Source: Escherichia phage vB_EcoM_WFC. Taken from it: a stretch of DNA of 64,000 nt. The DNA is taken from sequence record NC_048195.1; one strand, 5' to 3'. Below the pieces are notes generated by a model. It saw only the letters and a list, made by a program, of their open reading frames with translations, did not search any database and was not told where the DNA came from. A program made the position numbers and the translations under genes. Shown in pieces: positions 1-61,050 of this stretch; position 1 is the stretch's first letter; each line of letters opens with the position of its first letter.

Positions 1-34
1 GCTAGACGTTTCAACTTCCAACTGCACCATCGAT

Positions 35-286
35 TCACAGTTCATCTCCAGATTGCAAAATAAGACCCGCATAGAGGATTGCCAAAGCCAAAGGTGCACC
101 ACCACCAGCCTCTCTATTCTCTTTGATTTGAAGAGTATCCTTAAGGAATTGCAACTGAACGTTGAATTCATTTTCAATTCCAAGAACTCCAGCCAATTCT
201 TTTACAGAATCTGCATATGCCTTGTCTAGCAATTCTTTTGGTACTGTTAAAGTCAATTCATTTGCCATTTTCTTTCCACTCCACAA
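35..286 (-). CDS. hypothetical protein (83 aa)
   Basis: Minus-strand ORF at window start, co-directional with two neighbours; no recognisable motif. Confidence 0.3.
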   Translation of the reverse strand: MWSGKKMANELTLTVPKELLDKAYADSVKELAGVLGIENEFNVQLQFLKDTLQIKENREAGGGAPLALAILYAGLILQSGDEL

Positions 287-479
287 ATGTGCTGCCGCTT
301 GTTTCTCTATTTAGCAGGTATCTGCCGCGCATTCCATGAAGGCTGAATTCAACCGTCGATGGATTAGATTTTGAAAGCCATATAGGTTGTCCGTCGAATG
401 GACCGCCTATGCATGTGTATTTAGCTTTTGGCTCACTCCTTTTGGGCCGTTTTGCCCGCTCTTTGATTGATAGTCTCAT
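258..479 (-). CDS. hypothetical protein (73 aa)
   Basis: Minus-strand ORF; its stop region overlaps the next ORF by 29 nt, so the true start may be internal. Confidence 0.3.
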   Translation of the reverse strand: MRLSIKERAKRPKRSEPKAKYTCIGGPFDGQPIWLSKSNPSTVEFSLHGMRGRYLLNRETSGSTFVEWKENGK

Positions 480-694
480 CAGTCTTCACCTTGAGATTCC
501 AGACAAGTAAGGACAAGCCACGTCATCGGAAGAATCAAAACCAGAGAAATGAGGGACCAGATAGACCAGCACAAGATGACAGACTTGAATGTGTGAACGT
601 CGCCAAACGCAGCAGTAAAACAGAATCCCATCACAAATGCAATAGCGGTGGAATGGTTGTCTATGGCTTTTATGGCACGGTCGATGAGTTTCAT
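479..694 (-). CDS. small membrane protein, two predicted TM helices (holin-like topology)
   Basis: 71 aa with two hydrophobic stretches (AIAFVMGFCFTAAFG and ILCWSIWSLISLVLILPMTWLVL). Confidence 0.4.
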   Translation of the reverse strand: MKLIDRAIKAIDNHSTAIAFVMGFCFTAAFGDVHTFKSVILCWSIWSLISLVLILPMTWLVLTCLESQGED

Positions 695-768
695 ATTACC
701 TCCGGTTTTGAGTTAATATGATTATAACGCAGAGTCTCAGAAAGGCAAACTTTTTGTGAATTTTAATC

Positions 769-795
769 AAAAAAATGGCCAGAAAAAATCTGGCC
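769..795 (-). terminator. putative intrinsic terminator on the minus strand
   Basis: Inverted repeat GGCCAG/CTGGCC (777-782 / 790-795) with a 7-nt loop; the A-run at 769-775 is a U-run on the minus-strand transcript. Confidence 0.35.
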
Positions 796-841
796 GAAAG
801 ATCACCCTTTATCCACTACTAAGCTGGAATCATAATTTTAC

Positions 842-871
842 TTGATATAGCTTGTACAAGCAAACTATAAT
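842..871 (+). promoter_or_regulatory. sigma70-like promoter candidate upstream of the large terminase gene
   Basis: TTGATA (842-847), 18-nt spacer, TATAAT (866-871); the -10 abuts the ATG at 872, implying a leaderless start or a downstream start codon. Confidence 0.3.
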
Positions 872-2332
872 ATGAATAAAATATTAACACATAATTGGAA
901 ATTCATGTACCAGTTGAATCCTGCTTTAAAAGAAGTCTGGAAGACAAAAGCGCGATACAAAGTAATATACGGCGGTCGTGCATCTTCCAAATCGCATGAT
1001 GCCGCTGGTTTTGCTATTTATTTGGCGGCAAACTTCAAATTAAAATTCCTTTGCGTTCGACAATTCCAGAACAAGATTTCTGAATCTGTATATACTCTAT
1101 TAAAAGATAAAATAGAGATTTCTGATTTTAAAGATGAGTTCAATTTATTAAAGAACTCTATCGAGCATAAAAGAACTAAATCTGAATTTCTATTTTACGG
1201 TATCGCACGTAACGTTGATGAAATTAAATCAACGGAAGGTGTTGATGTTCTTTGGCTGGAAGAAGCGCACGCACTTACTGAAGAACAGTGGGACATTATT
1301 GAGCCGACAATCCGTAAAGAAGGGTCAGAAATATGGATCATCTTTAACCCTGATGAAGAGGCCGATTTCGTCTACCAAAACTTTGTTATGCGACCGCCGA
1401 AGAATGCCATAGTTAAAAAGATAAACTGGCAAGACAACCCATTCTTGTCGCAAACAATGCTGGATGTTATCGCAGGCATGTACGAGCGCGACCCGAAAAA
1501 GGCAGAGCACGTTTATGGCGGCGTGCCGAAGACTGGCGGCGATAAATCTGTAATCAACCGTGCATTCGTTAAGGCCGCTCTTAATCTCCACAAACACCCT
1601 ACGCTGGGCTGGAGTTTGTCAGGGTCTAACCGTATAGGCTTTGACGTAGCGGACGATGGCGACGACCTTAACGCCACTGCATTCGTCACAGGAAACGTAT
1701 TGCGCGGCATCAAGACGTGGGAAGGTCTGGAAGATGAATTGTTGAAATCGGCAAGCGGAGTTTGGAAAGATGCGCTTACATTTGGCGCTTCTATAACTTA
1801 TGACGCCATCGGTGTCGGCGCTTTTGCTGGTTCAAAATTTGATGAACTAAACGAGTATGCAATACATGAAAATCCATCATTTCCAAGAATCGAATTTAAT
1901 GCGTTCAACGCGCAAGGGTCTGTTGATGATCCTGATGACGTTTTTCTTGAGCTACCACACGTTGAAATACTCAATAAAGACCATTTCGCAAACATAAAAG
2001 CGCAAAAGTGGACTGAAATTGCAGAGAGATTCAGAAAGACATACGAATATGCAACTGGGCAAGCCGTATATCCGACTGATGAATTGATTTCAATCGACAC
2101 CGATGGTATACCGGAACTTGGGATTCCAGCTTGGACTACTGAAGAGATTGAGACGTTTCTTTTTGAGATGTCAGCGCCGCGCAAAGATACGTCTGTTCTT
2201 GGCAAGTTCAAAGTTGAATCTAAAAAGGATATGGCAAAGCGTGGAGTCAAATCACCTAACAAAGCGGACGCAGCAATCATGGCATTGATGAAACCAATCG
2301 TTGCAGCATCCGGCTTCTTCTCTAACCTTTAA
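872..2332 (+). CDS. terminase large subunit
   Basis: 486 aa; N-terminal Walker A-like GGRASSKS about 35 residues in, followed by a nuclease-like C-terminal half; first gene of the structural block. Start could instead be the ATG at 905. Confidence 0.9.
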   Translation: MNKILTHNWKFMYQLNPALKEVWKTKARYKVIYGGRASSKSHDAAGFAIYLAANFKLKFLCVRQFQNKISESVYTLLKDKIEISDFKDEFNLLKNSIEHKRTKSEFLFYGIARNVDEIKSTEGVDVLWLEEAHALTEEQWDIIEPTIRKEGSEIWIIFNPDEEADFVYQNFVMRPPKNAIVKKINWQDNPFLSQTMLDVIAGMYERDPKKAEHVYGGVPKTGGDKSVINRAFVKAALNLHKHPTLGWSLSGSNRIGFDVADDGDDLNATAFVTGNVLRGIKTWEGLEDELLKSASGVWKDALTFGASITYDAIGVGAFAGSKFDELNEYAIHENPSFPRIEFNAFNAQGSVDDPDDVFLELPHVEILNKDHFANIKAQKWTEIAERFRKTYEYATGQAVYPTDELISIDTDGIPELGIPAWTTEEIETFLFEMSAPRKDTSVLGKFKVESKKDMAKRGVKSPNKADAAIMALMKPIVAASGFFSNL

Positions 2333-2335
2333 CAA

Positions 2336-2575
2336 TTAAAGCATTCCGTGCTGAAGGTCTAGTTTTCTTGCAGCAAATGACCTGGCACGGAATCGCTTAC
2401 CCGCTCTTACTGCCTGCCGAATCTTCTTTTGCATACACTTACGGTCAAAATCGTTGCGGTCAACGGCTTCGAGCAAATCCCGACGCAAAGCACCTAGTGT
2501 CGCCTTTTCGGATAATTCTACGCCCAGCGCGGCTGCAACGTCTTTCAAAACATCGAGTTCGGTTAACGTTCTCAT
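2336..2575 (-). CDS. small basic protein with N-terminal helix-extension-helix (Rho_N/SAP-like) motif
   Basis: 79 aa; LTELDVLKDVAAALGVEL pattern then Arg/Lys-rich tail; second gene of a two-gene minus-strand unit inside the + strand structural block. Confidence 0.4.
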   Translation of the reverse strand: MRTLTELDVLKDVAAALGVELSEKATLGALRRDLLEAVDRNDFDRKCMQKKIRQAVRAGKRFRARSFAARKLDLQHGML

Positions 2576-2988
2576 TTGATGATCCCCTTGATGTCTGATT
2601 CTGCCATAAAGATTGGAGTGCCGCCGCCAGGAACAATCGAGCGCGTTACTTTGTCGAACATATCGTTCTCTTCAACTTGAATACGATAAAATTTATTTTT
2701 GGATGAAGATGGGCACAATCCAATAAATTTACCAATGCCGCGAACGCATTCATCTTCAAAGTATACTGTTTCACCTTGAATGGATTCGATGTTTTCAACC
2801 GGATACACCTTGCGACCTAAAAGCCATTCATCCATGGTCGCCTGCAACACGTTTCGCGCATCCAAAATCCAAGGGTCAACTGTGGCACCTTCATATCGCG
2901 CAGCAGTGGCTTTTGCCAGCTCTTCATATTCGCATACGTTTACTACTTCGCCTTGATGAAGGACGACAAATACAATTGTTGTGCTCAT
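2572..2988 (-). CDS. hypothetical protein (138 aa)
   Basis: Overlaps the downstream ORF by 4 nt (operon-like); AT-rich promoter-like region at 2989-3117. Confidence 0.4.
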   Translation of the reverse strand: MSTTIVFVVLHQGEVVNVCEYEELAKATAARYEGATVDPWILDARNVLQATMDEWLLGRKVYPVENIESIQGETVYFEDECVRGIGKFIGLCPSSSKNKFYRIQVEENDMFDKVTRSIVPGGGTPIFMAESDIKGIIK

Positions 2989-3150
2989 TTCAATCTCCTT
3001 TCGTTTGGTTAACTAAAATATAACTCAAAATGATACAAAAGCAAAATATTTTATGAACTATTTATGATTACTATACATATCATTTGCTTACAAACACATG
3101 AATATTTATAATATAGATTGATTCCCTTTCACTGTCAGGTGGCGTTAACA

Positions 3151-5526
3151 ATGAAAATTCTTGGCATAAAACTCTGGGAGAAGACGCAACCAGAAGCCGA
3201 ACCAGCGGAGATGCCGCCAGGCGACCCATTGGCACCGTTTGAACGCCTGGAAAGGCGCGGCAGCGGTCAACGCTGGGATAAGACCGAAAGCAACCGCCCG
3301 ACCTTTAAAACCGTTGATGACTTTCCTTTATATGAGCCTGATATCAACGGGGACGGTGTTGCAATCATCAAAGGTCGCTCAGTAGATTCAGCAACCGTAT
3401 CCAAAAAAGTTATGGATAATGCTTTGAAGAACATCAGTTCAGAAGGGCAGGTTAATCCATACACAGTACCTATTCAGTTGCAAAACTGGTACTTATCGCA
3501 ATCATTTATCGGATATCAAGCTTGCGCCATCATCGCGCAGCACTGGCTGGTGAACAAGGCTTGTTCCATGGTAGGCCGCGATGCGGTCCGTAAAGGCTGG
3601 GAAGTCAAATCCAGTTCTGAGTCCGAATTATCAGTGCAGGCCAGCGAACGCCTAAAGCAAATTGATAAAGAATTTAATATCAAAGAGCACTTAGTTGAAG
3701 CCGAACGATTCAAAAATATTTTTGGTATCCGCGTCATCATATTTGATGTGCGTAGCGATGACCCAGAATACTACAGTAAACCTTTTAACATTGATGGTGT
3801 GACAAAGGGGTCTTATAAGGGGATCATTCAGGTTGACCCTTATTGGATGATGCCATTTCTGACGTCTGAAAACACCGCCGACCCTGCTTCACAGCACTTT
3901 TATGATCCAGAATACTGGGTGATCAGCGGACAACGTTATCATCGCAGCCACCTCATCATATTGCGCAACGATGAGCCAGCTGATATTCTTAAGCCGACTT
4001 ACATCTACGGCGGCATTCCTCTAACTCAGCAGATTTATGAACGCATCTATGCCGCTGAACGTACCGCTAACGAAGCACCATTGTTGGCGATGTCTAAACG
4101 TACAACGACACTACGGACCGACGTTGACAAGGCGATTGCCAATGAGCGGTCTTTTGCCGAACGCCTGATGATGTGGATTAAGTACCGCGACAACTATGCT
4201 GTTAAGGTACTTGGCCAAAAAGAAGAAATGGACCAGTTCGACATCAACTTGTCAGACTTCGACAGCATCATCATGAACCAGTACCAGCTGGTGGCCGCAA
4301 TCGCAAAAGTTCCGTCGACCAAACTGCTTGGGACTTCGCCAAAAGGCTTTAACGCCACTGGTGAATTTGAGATGGTCAGCTATCACGAAGAGTTGGAAAC
4401 GTGCCAGCAGCATGACCTGACAAAAATTCTCGACCGCCATTACAAAATCCTTCTCAAATCAGAAGGGGTGGAAGTCGACGTTAAGGTTGCATGGGAACCA
4501 GTTGGCTCACTTACTGCTACTCAACTTGCAGAAATCAACGACAAGCGAGCTAACACTGGCAAAACTCTCATTGATGCTGGCGTCATTTCTCCTGATGAAG
4601 AGCGCGACCGCATCAAAGACGACAAAAACAGCGGTTACAACCGTCTGCCGGAAGATGCAGCAGAAGAAACCCCAGGGATGTCTCCAGAGAATATGGCATT
4701 GCTTGGCAAGTCTGCTGGTGAAGTCCTGCAAGGTAAGGCTGATATTGAACAGGCAAAAGCTGATGTCGTTAAGATGGGCGGCCAGTTCTATAGCGAGACT
4801 GGTATTATGCCAGAAGGTGCCGCGCGTGGTGAGTTGGCGGAAAACCCTGACAGAGCACCTGTCGAAATTAACATGGACGATACCGATGATGAATCAAACC
4901 ATCAGGTTGATGTCCTAACGCAGTTGAAAGAAGGTCTGGAGGGTATTGCGGATTACTACCTGAAAGAAGGTCAGGATGTGGATTTTGACCCTCAAAAAGA
5001 TTCACGGTCGGTGCAGCCGTCTACCCTTCCAAGCGTCAAAGGTAATGTCGTAAACTTACGACACAACGTTGGCGAGATGGACGCAGCATCATTACCTAAG
5101 ATGAAGTTGCACGGAATGATTCTTGGGATTGAGAATCCTCGCAACAGCATCCGTAGAGGAAATAGCCTTGACGGTGAATGGGCAGTCAAGATGCCGCACC
5201 ACTACGGATTCATCAAAGGCACCAAGGGCGCGGACGGCGATGAAGTCGACTGCTTTGTTGGCACAAATCTGAAGTCGCCGAAGGTCTTTATCGTGAACCA
5301 AAACGATAACTACTCTGGCGAGTTCGATGAACACAAGTGCATGCTTGGATTCGATTCAGCAGAAGAAGCAAAAGAAGCTTATCAGGCATCATTTGGTAAC
5401 GGTTGGAACGGATTCGACTCAATCCACGAATTAGATGTGAACTCATTCAAAGAGTGGTTGAAGGGTGATTGCTCTCAAGCATACGGAGCACTCAATAATC
5501 CTACTAATTCACCGAAGCAAGGTTGA
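3151..5526 (+). CDS. portal protein with C-terminal inorganic-pyrophosphatase-like domain
   Basis: About 790 aa immediately after the terminase gene; ATG at 3151 is preceded by AGGTGG (the ORF track starts at TTG 3118). The final ~120 aa contain HYGFIKGTKGADGDEVDCFVG, which fits the family I pyrophosphatase signature D-[SGDN]-D-[PE]-[LIVMF]-D-[LIVMGAC]. Confidence 0.65.
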   Translation: MKILGIKLWEKTQPEAEPAEMPPGDPLAPFERLERRGSGQRWDKTESNRPTFKTVDDFPLYEPDINGDGVAIIKGRSVDSATVSKKVMDNALKNISSEGQVNPYTVPIQLQNWYLSQSFIGYQACAIIAQHWLVNKACSMVGRDAVRKGWEVKSSSESELSVQASERLKQIDKEFNIKEHLVEAERFKNIFGIRVIIFDVRSDDPEYYSKPFNIDGVTKGSYKGIIQVDPYWMMPFLTSENTADPASQHFYDPEYWVISGQRYHRSHLIILRNDEPADILKPTYIYGGIPLTQQIYERIYAAERTANEAPLLAMSKRTTTLRTDVDKAIANERSFAERLMMWIKYRDNYAVKVLGQKEEMDQFDINLSDFDSIIMNQYQLVAAIAKVPSTKLLGTSPKGFNATGEFEMVSYHEELETCQQHDLTKILDRHYKILLKSEGVEVDVKVAWEPVGSLTATQLAEINDKRANTGKTLIDAGVISPDEERDRIKDDKNSGYNRLPEDAAEETPGMSPENMALLGKSAGEVLQGKADIEQAKADVVKMGGQFYSETGIMPEGAARGELAENPDRAPVEINMDDTDDESNHQVDVLTQLKEGLEGIADYYLKEGQDVDFDPQKDSRSVQPSTLPSVKGNVVNLRHNVGEMDAASLPKMKLHGMILGIENPRNSIRRGNSLDGEWAVKMPHHYGFIKGTKGADGDEVDCFVGTNLKSPKVFIVNQNDNYSGEFDEHKCMLGFDSAEEAKEAYQASFGNGWNGFDSIHELDVNSFKEWLKGDCSQAYGALNNPTNSPKQG

Positions 5527-5527
5527 T

Positions 5528-6379
5528 ATGGCTTTTAAAGCTTCGAAAAAACGTGAACGCCGCTCACCCGATAGAATCGGGCGCGGCAGTCCGATAATCC
5601 CATCAAACGCTATTGCGATGGCCTACCGTCGTGAGATGAAAGGTCTTTGCTATGCGATGATTGATGACTATCAGGCAGGCATTTCAGAATGGCTTGACAA
5701 GAAGCAGGTGCAGAAGTTTTTTGCGCAAGACTCTGCTGATTCGACATTCCAGACCCTTATGAAACGGCTGCAACTGAAATGGGCAAAGGCGTTTGCACGT
5801 GTTGGGTCGAAGATTGCCGCTGATTTTATCAAATCGGTCGAAAAGGGTGCCACTTCTGCTACATTCGCAAGCCTTAAGTCCGCAGGCATAGAAGCGCCAA
5901 AGGCCACATATAACAAATTCGTTGAGAACACTCTTAGAACAAGCGAGAAGTTTAACACGACTCTAGTGACTAAGGTCGGCGAGGATATTCACAACAGAGT
6001 GTACGAAGCAGTCATGCTTTCGCTGACTTCTCCCGACCCAGCCCAGCAAGGCACGTCAGGCATTCAGGCGGCATTGCGAAACGTAAAACACTTCTCTGCA
6101 AAGAGAGTCGACTTGATCGCTAAAGACCAGACAAGCAAATTGTATTGCGTTCTAAGCGATGAAAGGATGCGCCAGAATGGAGTCGAAGAATTTGAGTGGG
6201 CGCACTCAGGAGCAGGAAAGGAGCCGCGAATCTCTCATGAACACGTCGACGGAATGAGATTCAAACTTGATGACAAGCGCCTATGGGAAGTTGGCGGCGA
6301 ATTGAAGTTCAAAAAGGGTGACATCGGTCCTCCTGGATGGGCAATACACTGCAAGTGCAGAAAAATACCAATCATTTGA
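5528..6379 (+). CDS. head morphogenesis protein (Mu F / SPP1 gp7-like)
   Basis: 284 aa directly after the portal gene (ATG 5528 adjacent to the portal stop); sequence pattern remembered for minor head proteins of this family. Confidence 0.7.
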   Translation: MAFKASKKRERRSPDRIGRGSPIIPSNAIAMAYRREMKGLCYAMIDDYQAGISEWLDKKQVQKFFAQDSADSTFQTLMKRLQLKWAKAFARVGSKIAADFIKSVEKGATSATFASLKSAGIEAPKATYNKFVENTLRTSEKFNTTLVTKVGEDIHNRVYEAVMLSLTSPDPAQQGTSGIQAALRNVKHFSAKRVDLIAKDQTSKLYCVLSDERMRQNGVEEFEWAHSGAGKEPRISHEHVDGMRFKLDDKRLWEVGGELKFKKGDIGPPGWAIHCKCRKIPII

Positions 6380-60561: not shown

Positions 60562-61050
60562 ATGGGATTTTGCACTATGAGTCAAGATTATGTAGCGATG
60601 CCTGAAGACTTTGAAGACCCGCGATTCGCAGAGCACAATCAGGCTTTATTCGATGAGTTCATTGACCTTGTTATTCAGGGCCATGACATGCGCGCAGCTT
60701 TTGCACTAGTATTTGGAATGGAAGTTGCAACGGATAACTACACTGGCCAGCGAATCCTTTGCACGCAACGCAATCCATACTACAAGATGCGCTTCAAAAA
60801 GCGTATGGAAGAGATGCCACTCAAGGATTTGTGGAGCGTAAAAGGTGCAATTCACAATTTGGTCAAGCTTGTGCGTGATCCAGAAGTCGCGGCGTCAGCC
60901 AAGCTTAATGCTATTCGTGAACTGAATATCATCTACGGCATCACGATGATTGATGAAAACGGCAATAGTAAAATGGGCCGTTCCATGGACGATTTCTACA
61001 AGGATTTCGGAGAGGCGGCCAAAGAAGGCGAGCAATTTTCCCGCCACTAG
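60562..61050 (+). CDS. putative terminase small subunit (HTH-type)
   Basis: 162 aa; GHDMRAAFALVFGME ... QRILCTQRNPYYKMRFKKRMEE and later KLNAIRELNIIYGI resemble small-terminase patterns from memory; alternative ATG at 60577. Confidence 0.45.
   Translation: MGFCTMSQDYVAMPEDFEDPRFAEHNQALFDEFIDLVIQGHDMRAAFALVFGMEVATDNYTGQRILCTQRNPYYKMRFKKRMEEMPLKDLWSVKGAIHNLVKLVRDPEVAASAKLNAIRELNIIYGITMIDENGNSKMGRSMDDFYKDFGEAAKEGEQFSRH

Follow-up and report, generated by a model that had tools for sequence, protein, structure and literature searches.

Antisense genes between the terminase and portal genes have been described for PB1-like Pseudomonas phages (Pbunavirus), in which this junction holds a cassette of 13 genes, described as an early genome region with host-interacting proteins. 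Its products include gp12 of phage 14-1, a transcription inhibitor that binds the alpha subunit of RNA polymerase, gp11/YIP, a YfiN-interacting peptide, and a DUF2786 protein whose annotation relates it to the L5 gp77 shut-off protein. In phage 14-1, transcription unit TU012 begins at TSS 9116 under control of the sigma70-class promoter P012 and spans gp17 to gp13; the gp17 transcript has a 5'UTR of 21 nt, and the TSS of the portal promoter P013, divergent from P012, has been mapped as well. A terminator separates the terminase large subunit gene (TerL) from the Pbunavirus cassette. Kylevirus-like phages carry antisense cassettes of four to six genes at the same junction.

Here, the corresponding junction was analysed in Escherichia phage vB_EcoM_WFC (NC_048195.1), an E. 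coli myovirus of the genus Wifcevirus with a genome of ~68 kb. The analysis covered a stretch of 64,000 nt, referred to as the window in the following. In Wifcevirus the antisense cassette consists of two genes, which the original prediction regarded as a moron at a position typical of toxin–antitoxin, anti-defence or superinfection-exclusion genes. Our results identify the pair as an inherited remnant of the early-gene cassette shared with PB1-like Pseudomonas phages, and not as a recent toxin–antitoxin or defence insert.

Organisation of the locus

The ORFs for proteins of 138 and 79 amino acids, anticipated as an antisense pair inside a plus-strand structural block, are located exactly where they had been placed (Table 1). 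The 4-nt overlap foreseen between them is likewise present, as an ATGA at 2572–2575, and the two cistrons are translationally coupled through it. The AGGAG motif in front of the 138-aa gene carries a ribosome-binding-site annotation in phage Mansfield, and GGGGA precedes the 79-aa gene. At the distal end of the cassette, the stop codons of TerL and the 79-aa gene are separated by 3 nt. The original prediction further assigned to the pair an AT-rich promoter region of its own at 2989–3117. Such a region exists, but its right edge has to be moved. The portal gene starts with ATG 3151 rather than TTG 3118, as annotated in all GenBank records, and the relative L003 carries a 2-nt indel between these two candidate starts. 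The intergenic region therefore covers 2989–3150.

Table 1 Features of the terminase–portal junction and related elements in the window
Feature	Position	Strand	Description
Small terminase (TerS) homologue	60562-61050	+	41% identity to Pbunavirus PBanzai_081, E 1e-35
Canonical intrinsic terminator	777-795	-	GGCCAGA-loop-TCTGGCC followed by T7; annotated as terminator in phage WFH
TerL flank (terminase large subunit)	905-2332	+	Pfam Terminase_3, E 3e-37; convergent with the cassette
79-aa protein gene	2336-2575	-	Basic product; orthologue vB_Eco4M-7 gp34
138-aa protein gene	2572-2988	-	Acidic product, phrog_5124
Shine-Dalgarno AGGAG	2995-2999	-	6 nt 5' of the ATG of the 138-aa gene
Divergent control region	2989-3150	.	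162 nt, 26.5% GC, several inverted repeats
Predicted sigma70-type cassette promoter	3017-3044	-	-35 TTGCTT 3044->3039, -10 TATATT 3022->3017, spacer 16 nt
Predicted sigma70-type promoter of the portal/structural operon	3084-3112	+	TTGCTT-17-TATAAT
Portal flank with C-terminal InPase domain	3151-5526	+	Phage_portal_3, E 5e-88; divergent from the cassette

Conservation and expression of the two genes

Both ORFs are genuine conserved genes. They were found in 27/27 Wifcevirus records that hold the TerL–portal region, with no presence/absence polymorphism among these related phages. In a comparison of nine Wifcevirus sequences (the window and eight others), variable sites at codon positions 1/2/3 numbered 8/2/51 in the 138-aa gene and 5/0/26 in the 79-aa gene, and pairwise dN/dS values fell between 0.05 and 0.09 for pairs with dS > 0.2. 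Expression has been recorded for the 138-aa orthologue gp35 of phage vB_Eco4M-7, which, as a HiBiT-tagged protein, produced a luminescence of ~3.1e6 RLU above the untagged control in infection. With conservation seen for both genes and expression for the first one, the concern that the pair might be devoid of conservation and expression falls away. The tagged vB_Eco4M-7 phage is viable; a C-terminal tag on gp35 is tolerated, an observation that has no bearing on the essentiality of the gene.

Published MS analyses of crude lysates of these phages identified 33 proteins of vB_Eco4M-7, with gp34 and gp35 not among them, and 28 proteins of ECML-117, again without the orthologues of gp34 and gp35. 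For the 79-aa protein this non-detection carries little weight, as small basic proteins are easily missed by MS.

Properties of the two proteins

Remote homology searches and structure prediction assigned the 138-aa protein to phrog_5124 and returned weak SAP/HeH-like fold matches for the 79-aa protein. The 138-aa protein is acidic (pI 4.7; 21 D+E versus 14 K+R). Its family corresponds to phrog_5124 and comprises Pbunavirus ORF16 (14-1 gp17, LBL3 gp14, PBanzai_016) and vB_Eco4M-7 gp35. While the window protein itself matches phrog_5124 at E 3.7e-4, 18 of its 21 aligned relatives do so with a best E of 2.9e-88, and a profile built from the window family finds those from Pbunavirus with E values between 1e-31 and 1e-23. 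Apart from phrog_5124, the protein gave no match above noise in Pfam, NCBIfam, PADLOC or PDB sequences. Scans with each individual family member and PDB searches with the family profile had the same outcome for both proteins of the pair.

The 138-aa family is small. A word-indexed search of 5.8 billion proteins retrieved nine proteins, and an exhaustive profile search of 1.84 billion representatives yielded just 17 clusters, one of which, a 1,867-aa protein with seven short matched stretches, is taken as spurious. The relatives are phage-borne wherever their context was examined, which covers part of the 17 clusters. Scanning IMG/VR with the family alignment recovered only ECML-117, FEC19, Kyle and one more Wifcevirus contig. 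In the predicted fold, a linker helix joins an N-terminal beta-beta-alpha-beta domain to a small beta-barrel at the C-terminus. In the model, this barrel is comparable to those of Sm/LSm, Tudor, the KOW domains of NusG/Spt5, PsaE/SH3-like proteins and YaeO/Rof, although there is no family-level sequence signal linking these modules to the 138-aa protein and the N-terminal domain with its linker helix has no counterpart in the small beta-barrel families. In a viral structure library, the fold matched its own family alone.

The 79-aa protein is basic (pI 10.3). Its tail was expected to be highly basic, and the last 39 residues indeed contain 12 K+R versus 3 D+E; this part is rich in Arg and aromatic residues, and the protein has one invariant Cys (C47). 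An N-terminal helix-extension-helix motif had been proposed from the sequence as well and agrees with the AlphaFold model, which shows a helix at residues 6–17, an extended segment at 18–26 and a helix at 27–40, followed by two further helices. The modelled fold gives weak SAP/HeH-like matches in comparison with the SAP domains of SIZ1, PIAS1 and FAN1 and the N-terminal domain of Rho. At the level of sequence, none of six family members matched the Pfam models SAP, Rho_N and HeH at E up to 10, the family profile found no PDB chain, and no match above noise was obtained in Pfam, NCBIfam, PHROGs, PADLOC or PDB sequences. The word-indexed search of 5.8 billion proteins returned two proteins.

The cassette in related phages

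In Wifcevirus, L003, Kyle, L024, L026, LBL3, 14-1 and Banzai alike, the antisense gene that heads the cassette, divergent from the portal gene, belongs to the 138-aa family. Pbunavirus ORF16 shares 27% identity with the window protein over its full length (family lengths 133–138 aa), and the two genes agree in being the first antisense gene, in their divergence from the portal gene, in a sigma70-type promoter and in a 5'UTR of ~21 nt. ORF16 differs from its Wifcevirus counterpart in that it heads the 13-gene cassette and the five-gene unit gp17–gp13, and lacks the 79-aa partner. The 79-aa family follows the 138-aa family in five lineages; the two are separated by a protease gene in L003, Kyle and L026, and L024 retains a 45-aa protease remnant. 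The ATGA overlap in Wifcevirus probably arose by deletion of this intervening gene. The protease in the cassettes of the relatives is a Trypsin_2 lipoprotein with a lipobox, and these cassettes also hold a DUF2786/DUF7168 protein. Neither was found within the 64-kb window, and the Bas100 annotation names no gene of either kind.

The described Pbunavirus effectors gp12 and gp11/YIP are encoded on the same strand of the syntenic cassette; both are small, non-structural and act on host targets. Neither of them is homologous to the 138-aa or the 79-aa protein or has a detectable homologue in the window, so that the functional analogy is one of neighbourhood only.

The divergent control region

The predicted promoters of the cassette and the portal operon are mirror-symmetric and have TTTGCTT -35 elements in common, which are embedded in nested inverted repeats. 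The predicted cassette TSS lies near 3010, corresponding to a 5'UTR of ~22 nt. Promoters of the TTTGCTT-N16-18-TATAAT-like type are present in 10 copies in the window, compared with 0.58 in shuffled sequences, and this class includes, besides the cassette promoter, those of the portal and baseplate genes. The promoter hexamers are kept in L003, Kyle and L026. Two other candidates for the cassette promoter were set aside: TTCATA-16-TATCAT (3057->3030) is not conserved in L003, and the spacing of CTGACA-17-TATATT (3138->3110) is altered there. An Rfam scan of positions 1–6000 revealed no RNA family, and the GC skew follows gene orientation only, with no sign of a replication origin in the intergenic region.

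Within Wifcevirus, the region is hyper-conserved: 3/162 sites are variable versus 34.5% of third codon positions (Fisher p 1e-23) and 9.5% of sites in the intergenic region upstream of TerL. The stretch at about 2960–3260 is the most conserved of the surrounding 5 kb. This could reflect recent recombination. When the window is compared with L003, the intergenic region (73% identity) is no better conserved than coding DNA (68–72%); the constraint is therefore visible within the genus only. On the minus strand, no terminator was found between 2336 and 795->777, and folding 3' of the 79-aa gene has a z of -0.19. The first canonical minus-strand terminator 3' of the cassette is the one listed in Table 1, 1.5 kb away and upstream of TerL. 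Cassette transcripts possibly end there, in which case they would cross TerL in antisense orientation.

A small DNA-binding gene divergent from the operon under its control is a classic regulator layout. The locus could accordingly be read as a cis-acting switch, in which the SAP-like 79-aa protein binds the divergent region, autoregulates the cassette and gates the portal/structural operon, while antisense cassette RNA dampens TerL until the switch flips. The hyper-conservation, the symmetric promoters with their nested repeats and the lack of a terminator between the convergent stop codons are consistent with such a device. Still, we consider it unlikely: the constraint does not extend to L003, the divergent promoters are likewise present in Pbunavirus, which has no 79-aa homologue, the Pbunavirus terminator isolates TerL from the cassette, and the putative binding comes without a defined motif. 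Rather unlikely, too, is a variant in which both proteins and a ~300-nt region form a new compact switch, with the beta-barrel protein as a co-factor that might contact RNA polymerase, Rho or Hfq, and with antisense RNA directed against the terminase mRNA.

Alternative functions of the pair

One or both proteins might neutralise host immunity, e.g., restriction-modification. This notion is compatible with the 138-aa protein being small, acidic, non-structural and under a host-type promoter, with the considerable restriction resistance of Wifcevirus phages, to which no mechanism has been assigned, and with the many anti-defence genes in Pbunavirus genomes. However, anti-defence genes are usually patchy and located in variable regions, whereas the 138-aa family holds a fixed position in every examined genome across three genera with Escherichia, Pantoea and Pseudomonas hosts. 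There was no match to PADLOC or known anti-defence proteins, and the charge of the 138-aa protein is far from that of a DNA mimic. Overall, an anti-defence function appears quite unlikely.

It is improbable that the pair serves packaging or head assembly, as a DNA-binding helper of the terminase or a portal chaperone. The conserved TerL–portal position in three genera would fit this assignment, as would a basic 79-aa protein that may bind DNA and a cassette promoter from the structural-gene class. Conversely, the pair is encoded on the strand opposite to all morphogenesis genes, the copies in relatives sit among host-interaction genes, neither protein appeared in the crude-lysate proteomes, the true small terminase is encoded elsewhere, and no fold likeness to known scaffold, chaperone or TerS proteins was observed.

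A horizontally gained toxin–antitoxin or superinfection-exclusion moron, as favoured by the original prediction, is highly improbable. The outward likeness to type II toxin–antitoxin modules and morons is clear: two short co-directional genes, one with an acidic and one with a basic product, overlap by 4 nt, have their own promoter, with inverted repeats that could serve autoregulation, and lie antisense in a structural block. Unlike such elements, the pair displays no mobility, no compositional anomaly, no known toxin–antitoxin fold and no dedicated terminator. It is fixed in Wifcevirus (see above) and its GC content is typical of the genome (43.6% for the 138-aa gene and 49.2% for the 79-aa gene, versus 46.1% for the window, 42.9% for TerL and 47.6% for the portal gene). 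The pair does not occur in any of 5,426 complete E. coli genomes, neither protein matches known toxin, antitoxin or defence families in PADLOC, Pfam or NCBIfam, and the few clusters of the 138-aa family are phage-borne in all contexts examined. The genes are also separable, as illustrated by the relatives with a protease in between and by Pbunavirus without the 79-aa family. Exclusion at the membrane finds no support either, as both models are soluble folds without membrane segment or signal peptide (top 19-residue Kyte-Doolittle values of 1.28 and 0.91 for the 138-aa and 79-aa protein). In a Pbunavirus screen of 38 early-region ORFans, which may or may not have included ORF16, only gp12 and the YIPs altered growth or colony morphology. 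The moron assignment thus gives way to that of an inherited cassette.

Finally, one of the two proteins could have been the missing small terminase subunit, as TerS usually adjoins TerL and no TerS is annotated in Bas100 or other Wifcevirus records. Possible DNA binding by the 79-aa protein would suit this role, as would the predicted C-terminal beta-barrel of the 138-aa protein, a feature shared with many TerS. But TerS and TerL genes are known to be apart in Pbunavirus, and this identity is ruled out for either protein by the TerS homologue found in the distal part of the window (Table 1).

Proposed role of the cassette

The reading that we prefer is that of a vertically inherited, non-structural mini-operon, driven by host sigma70 and translationally coupled, that acts on nucleic-acid transactions in the infected cell; we assign it a probability of roughly one half. 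The pair would represent a two-gene remnant of an ancestral antisense cassette between terminase and portal in the Pbunavirus/Kylevirus/Wifcevirus lineage. Host sigma70 RNA polymerase would transcribe it from one arm of the symmetric divergent promoters, the other arm serving the portal operon, and the two cistrons would then be translated in a coupled fashion. The 79-aa product most likely represents a small protein that binds nucleic acids, for which the model suggests a SAP/HeH-like helical head in front of the Arg/aromatic-rich tail. For the 138-aa product, the likeliest role is that of an acidic adaptor, which may bind its partner, a protein or a nucleic acid, via the modelled Tudor/Sm/KOW-like small beta-barrel. 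By analogy with Pbunavirus gp12 and YIP, both would act on nucleic-acid transactions of the host or the phage inside the infected cell and not in the virion. Timing of expression, nucleic-acid binding and target of the pair are what we infer here; because the cassette shares its promoter class with the portal and baseplate genes, it is the Pbunavirus analogy that points to early expression in Wifcevirus.

Implications

An antisense insert in a structural block is not necessarily a moron, and a tempting misreading of this locus is thereby corrected. The 138-aa family is among the few non-structural genes kept at a fixed position from Pbunaviruses, which are widely used in Pseudomonas phage therapy, to E. 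coli Wifcevirus and Pantoea Kylevirus. Structure-based annotation has yielded no function for it. The analysis also locates a small terminase gene that had lacked annotation and a promoter class that recurs across the phage. Should the compact switch described above prove true, phrog_5124 would stand for a novel type of phage regulator of transcription or RNA. Wifcevirus genomes can be reassembled in vitro and there are isolates that propagate on derivatives of E. coli K-12, which makes for a tractable test system. As the minimal surviving core of the cassette, the Wifcevirus pair tells which of the cassette genes are least dispensable.

A conserved coding pair between the large terminase and portal genes

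The two minus-strand ORFs lie exactly where the original prediction had placed them (see table), between a large terminase gene (TerL; Terminase_3 match, E 3e-37) and a portal gene with a C-terminal InPase domain. Across positions 800-5600 the window shares 93-98% nucleotide identity with 27 GenBank Wifcevirus records (E. coli and Shigella myoviruses of 66-72 kb, among them TH32, FEC19, vB_Eco4M-7, ECML-117, WFH, Mansfield and BASEL phages Bas98-101); the genus has been described as distantly related to Pbunavirus, the PB1-like Pseudomonas phages. A check of presence or absence in related phages found both ORFs in every annotated Wifcevirus record, in all cases as hypothetical proteins. Both are evidently coding, because variable sites pile up on codon position 3 (8/2/51 at positions 1/2/3 of the 138-aa gene and 5/0/26 of the 79-aa gene, nine genomes) and dN/dS is 0.05-0.09 where dS is 0.2-0.46. 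The Shine-Dalgarno motif AGGAG precedes the 138-aa ATG by 6 nt. The 79-aa protein (pI 10.3) carries the basic tail that had been claimed for it, with 12 K+R per 39 residues, and neither protein has a membrane segment. The predicted portal start was corrected to ATG 3151, and the intergenic region therefore spans 162 nt, at 26.5% GC.

The InPase domain of the portal (PF18823, E 8e-46) covers residues 660-782, numbered in an 802-aa ORF from TTG 3118. It also occurs in giant multi-domain phage proteins, DarB-like antirestriction proteins among them, and the fusion is kept in two related Logan contigs, L003 and the frameshifted Wifcevirus contig L004 (ERR4605272). The latter encodes a 156-aa "homologue", P0008: the 138-aa gene with a frameshift, identical to about residue 100 and out of frame beyond. 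Most likely the assembly is at fault and this is no natural variant.

Coordinates of features in the window and in related contigs
Feature	Position	Strand	Remark
138-aa ORF	2572-2988	-	ATGA common to 79-aa ORF
79-aa ORF	2336-2575	-	ATGA common to 138-aa ORF
Intergenic region	2989-3150
Cassette promoter (predicted)	-35 TTGCTT 3044->3039; -10 TATATT 3022->3017	-	16-nt spacer
Portal promoter (predicted)	TTGCTT 3084-3089; TATAAT 3107-3112	+	17-nt spacer
Near-invariant stretch	2960-3260		300 nt
Portal	3151-5526	+
(A/T-rich)TTTGCTT-N16-18-TATAAT-like sites	3084, 22181, 48274, 51915, 57690	+
(A/T-rich)TTTGCTT-N16-18-TATAAT-like sites	47096, 43388, 42949, 3044, 863	-
Strong intrinsic terminator	795->777	-	just upstream of TerL
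TerL promoter	842-871; TATAAT 866-871	+	abuts ATG 872
TerL start (probable)	905	+	475 aa; 486 aa from ATG 872
Genes upstream of TerL	479-694 region	-	include gp32 orthologue, 76 aa
Small terminase (almost certain)	60562-61050	+	162 aa
Trypsin_2 protease, relatives	L003:8411-9019, L001:6414-6959, L026:1857-2417, L025:650-1261		between two cassette genes
Protease remnant	L024:3250-3387		45 aa
P0008	L004:8001-8471		frameshifted 138-aa gene

Origin of the cassette

Relatives of the 138-aa protein are rare: a word-indexed search across 5.8 billion sequences turned up 9 proteins, and exhaustive profile searching of 1.84 billion gave 17 clusters; every one with context examined is phage-borne. In these contexts the gene is always the first of those read divergently from the portal, at the head of an antisense cassette whose far end converges on TerL. 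The cassette holds two genes in Wifcevirus, four in L003 (a 137-aa homologue, a Trypsin_2 lipoprotein protease, a 79-aa homologue and DUF2786/DUF7168), five in Pantoea phage Kyle, six and at least six in contigs L024 and L026, and 13 in the Pbunavirus phages LBL3 and 14-1. The 79-aa family, marked by an invariant Cys and by [FYW]R within its basic tail, is found downstream of the 138-aa gene in five lineages (21-68% identity); Pbunavirus gave no homologue, and the window yielded none of the protease, DUF2786 or gp12.

In L024, the protease signal peptide is fused to its C-terminus as a short remnant; the protease is thus probably ancestral to the cassette and was lost several times, and the ATGA coupling of the Wifcevirus pair is probably a product of its deletion. 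The protease carries a lipoprotein signal, with an LAGC lipobox in L003 and Kyle, and as a secreted enzyme is an odd find in a virulent myovirus. On these comparisons, the pair is the minimal core kept from an ancestral antisense cassette of the Pbunavirus/Kylevirus/Wifcevirus lineage. We put the evolutionary and anatomical account as a whole at a probability of about 0.9.

Expression and the control region

In vB_Eco4M-7 the 79-aa and 138-aa genes are named gp34 and gp35. A synthetic-phage study picked gp35 for HiBiT tagging as a gene directly behind a transcription start site, and the tagged phage plated much like the untagged one (336 vs 332 plaques). From the published mean differences, luminescence above the untagged control was ~3.1e6 RLU in ATCC 43888, 3.8e5 in Ec134 and 2.4e6 in Ec135, inside the range of other tagged proteins. 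The original prediction had named a lack of conservation and expression evidence as grounds for refutation; both genes are conserved, this 138-aa orthologue luminesces, and the pair is confirmed as real. Proteins of the gp34/gp35 type are not in the mass-spectrometry lists for crude lysates of vB_Eco4M-7 or ECML-117.

The predicted cassette and portal promoters are mirror-symmetric and both lie inside the intergenic region. Their hexamers are kept in the matching regions of L003, Kyle and L026 despite an overall identity of ~70%. ONT-cappable-seq of Pbunavirus 14-1 mapped a sigma70-class minus-strand promoter, P012 (TSS 9116), 21 nt upstream of gp17, the orthologue of the 138-aa gene, and transcribing gp17 to gp13 (TU012), with a divergent sigma70 portal promoter, P013 (TSS 9247). 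The 5'UTRs predicted for the window, ~22 nt for the cassette and ~31 nt for the portal, are close to the mapped values of 21 and 28 nt. The TTGCTT-N16-18-TATAAT-like pattern occurs ten times in the window vs 0.58 in shuffles, mostly with A/T-rich context upstream, and precedes structural, replication and small-ORF blocks without distinction. This phage-wide class suggests that host sigma70 would transcribe every gene class via a non-canonical -35.

Among seven Wifcevirus genomes, only 3/162 intergenic sites vary vs 34.5% of third codon positions (Fisher p 1e-23), the figure being 9.5% for the intergenic region upstream of TerL. Low variation continues ~100-110 nt into the portal gene, where synonymous sites are frozen too; the near-invariant stretch comprises the divergent promoters, ~30 nt of the 138-aa start and ~110 nt of the portal start. 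Such constancy could stem from binding of a regulator, from RNA structure or from recombination in the recent past.

Alternative readings

The most interesting surviving alternative is that the locus acts as a cis-regulatory switch. What suggests it is the symmetry and extreme conservation of the promoter region, together with the convergence on TerL without a terminator: the 79-aa and TerL stops are 3 nt apart with none between them, and the next on the minus strand lies beyond TerL. Antisense transcripts across TerL are the only obvious upstream transcript source for that terminator. TerL itself is a single plus-strand gene with minus-strand genes on both sides, those upstream including the orthologue of vB_Eco4M-7 gp32, a protein that scored very highly (1002) by MS of phage lysates. 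The TerL start is probably ATG 905 rather than 872, because its promoter hexamer abuts the latter; the Bas100 and Mansfield annotations agree.

A packaging or assembly role is argued against by strand, neighbours and proteome data. Distribution, composition, family membership and localisation defeat or weaken the toxin-antitoxin, superinfection-exclusion and anti-defence readings. The moron or toxin-antitoxin reading originally offered is not supported; a recent acquisition is excluded by the fixed position in relatives, the gene-loss pattern, a genome-typical GC content and the absence of any match among 5,426 complete E. coli genomes.

Wifcevirus records annotate no small terminase (TerS), hence the idea that the pair might supply it; this is excluded, since the TerS homologue is another gene of the window. 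That ORF, 41% identical to Pbunavirus TerS PBanzai_081 (E 1e-35), is almost certainly the Wifcevirus TerS. It sits ~8 kb upstream of TerL when the map is read as a circle, and ~60 kb downstream by window coordinates; the Pbunavirus gene is likewise known to stand apart from TerL. In Bas100 the orthologue of the window ORF, Bas100_0092, carries no label beyond hypothetical.

Function

The syntenic Pbunavirus cassette is described as an early genome region. Its gp12, which binds the RNA polymerase alpha subunit, inhibits transcription; gp11/YIP, a peptide of 31 aa, binds the diguanylate cyclase YfiN; and the DUF2786 product carries an annotation linking it to the shut-off protein gp77 of mycobacteriophage L5. 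Among 38 screened ORFans of the region (ORF16, the 138-aa-family gene, not confirmed among them), an effect on growth or colony morphology was limited to gp12 and the YIPs. Most likely, the 79-aa product would be a small nucleic-acid-binding protein and the 138-aa product a beta-barrel adaptor, both predicted to work inside the infected cell. We regard this general class as about an even call, and any one specific mechanism as doubtful. The genes were known as annotated hypotheticals of a known family; the added interest lies in their deep conservation and unusual control region.
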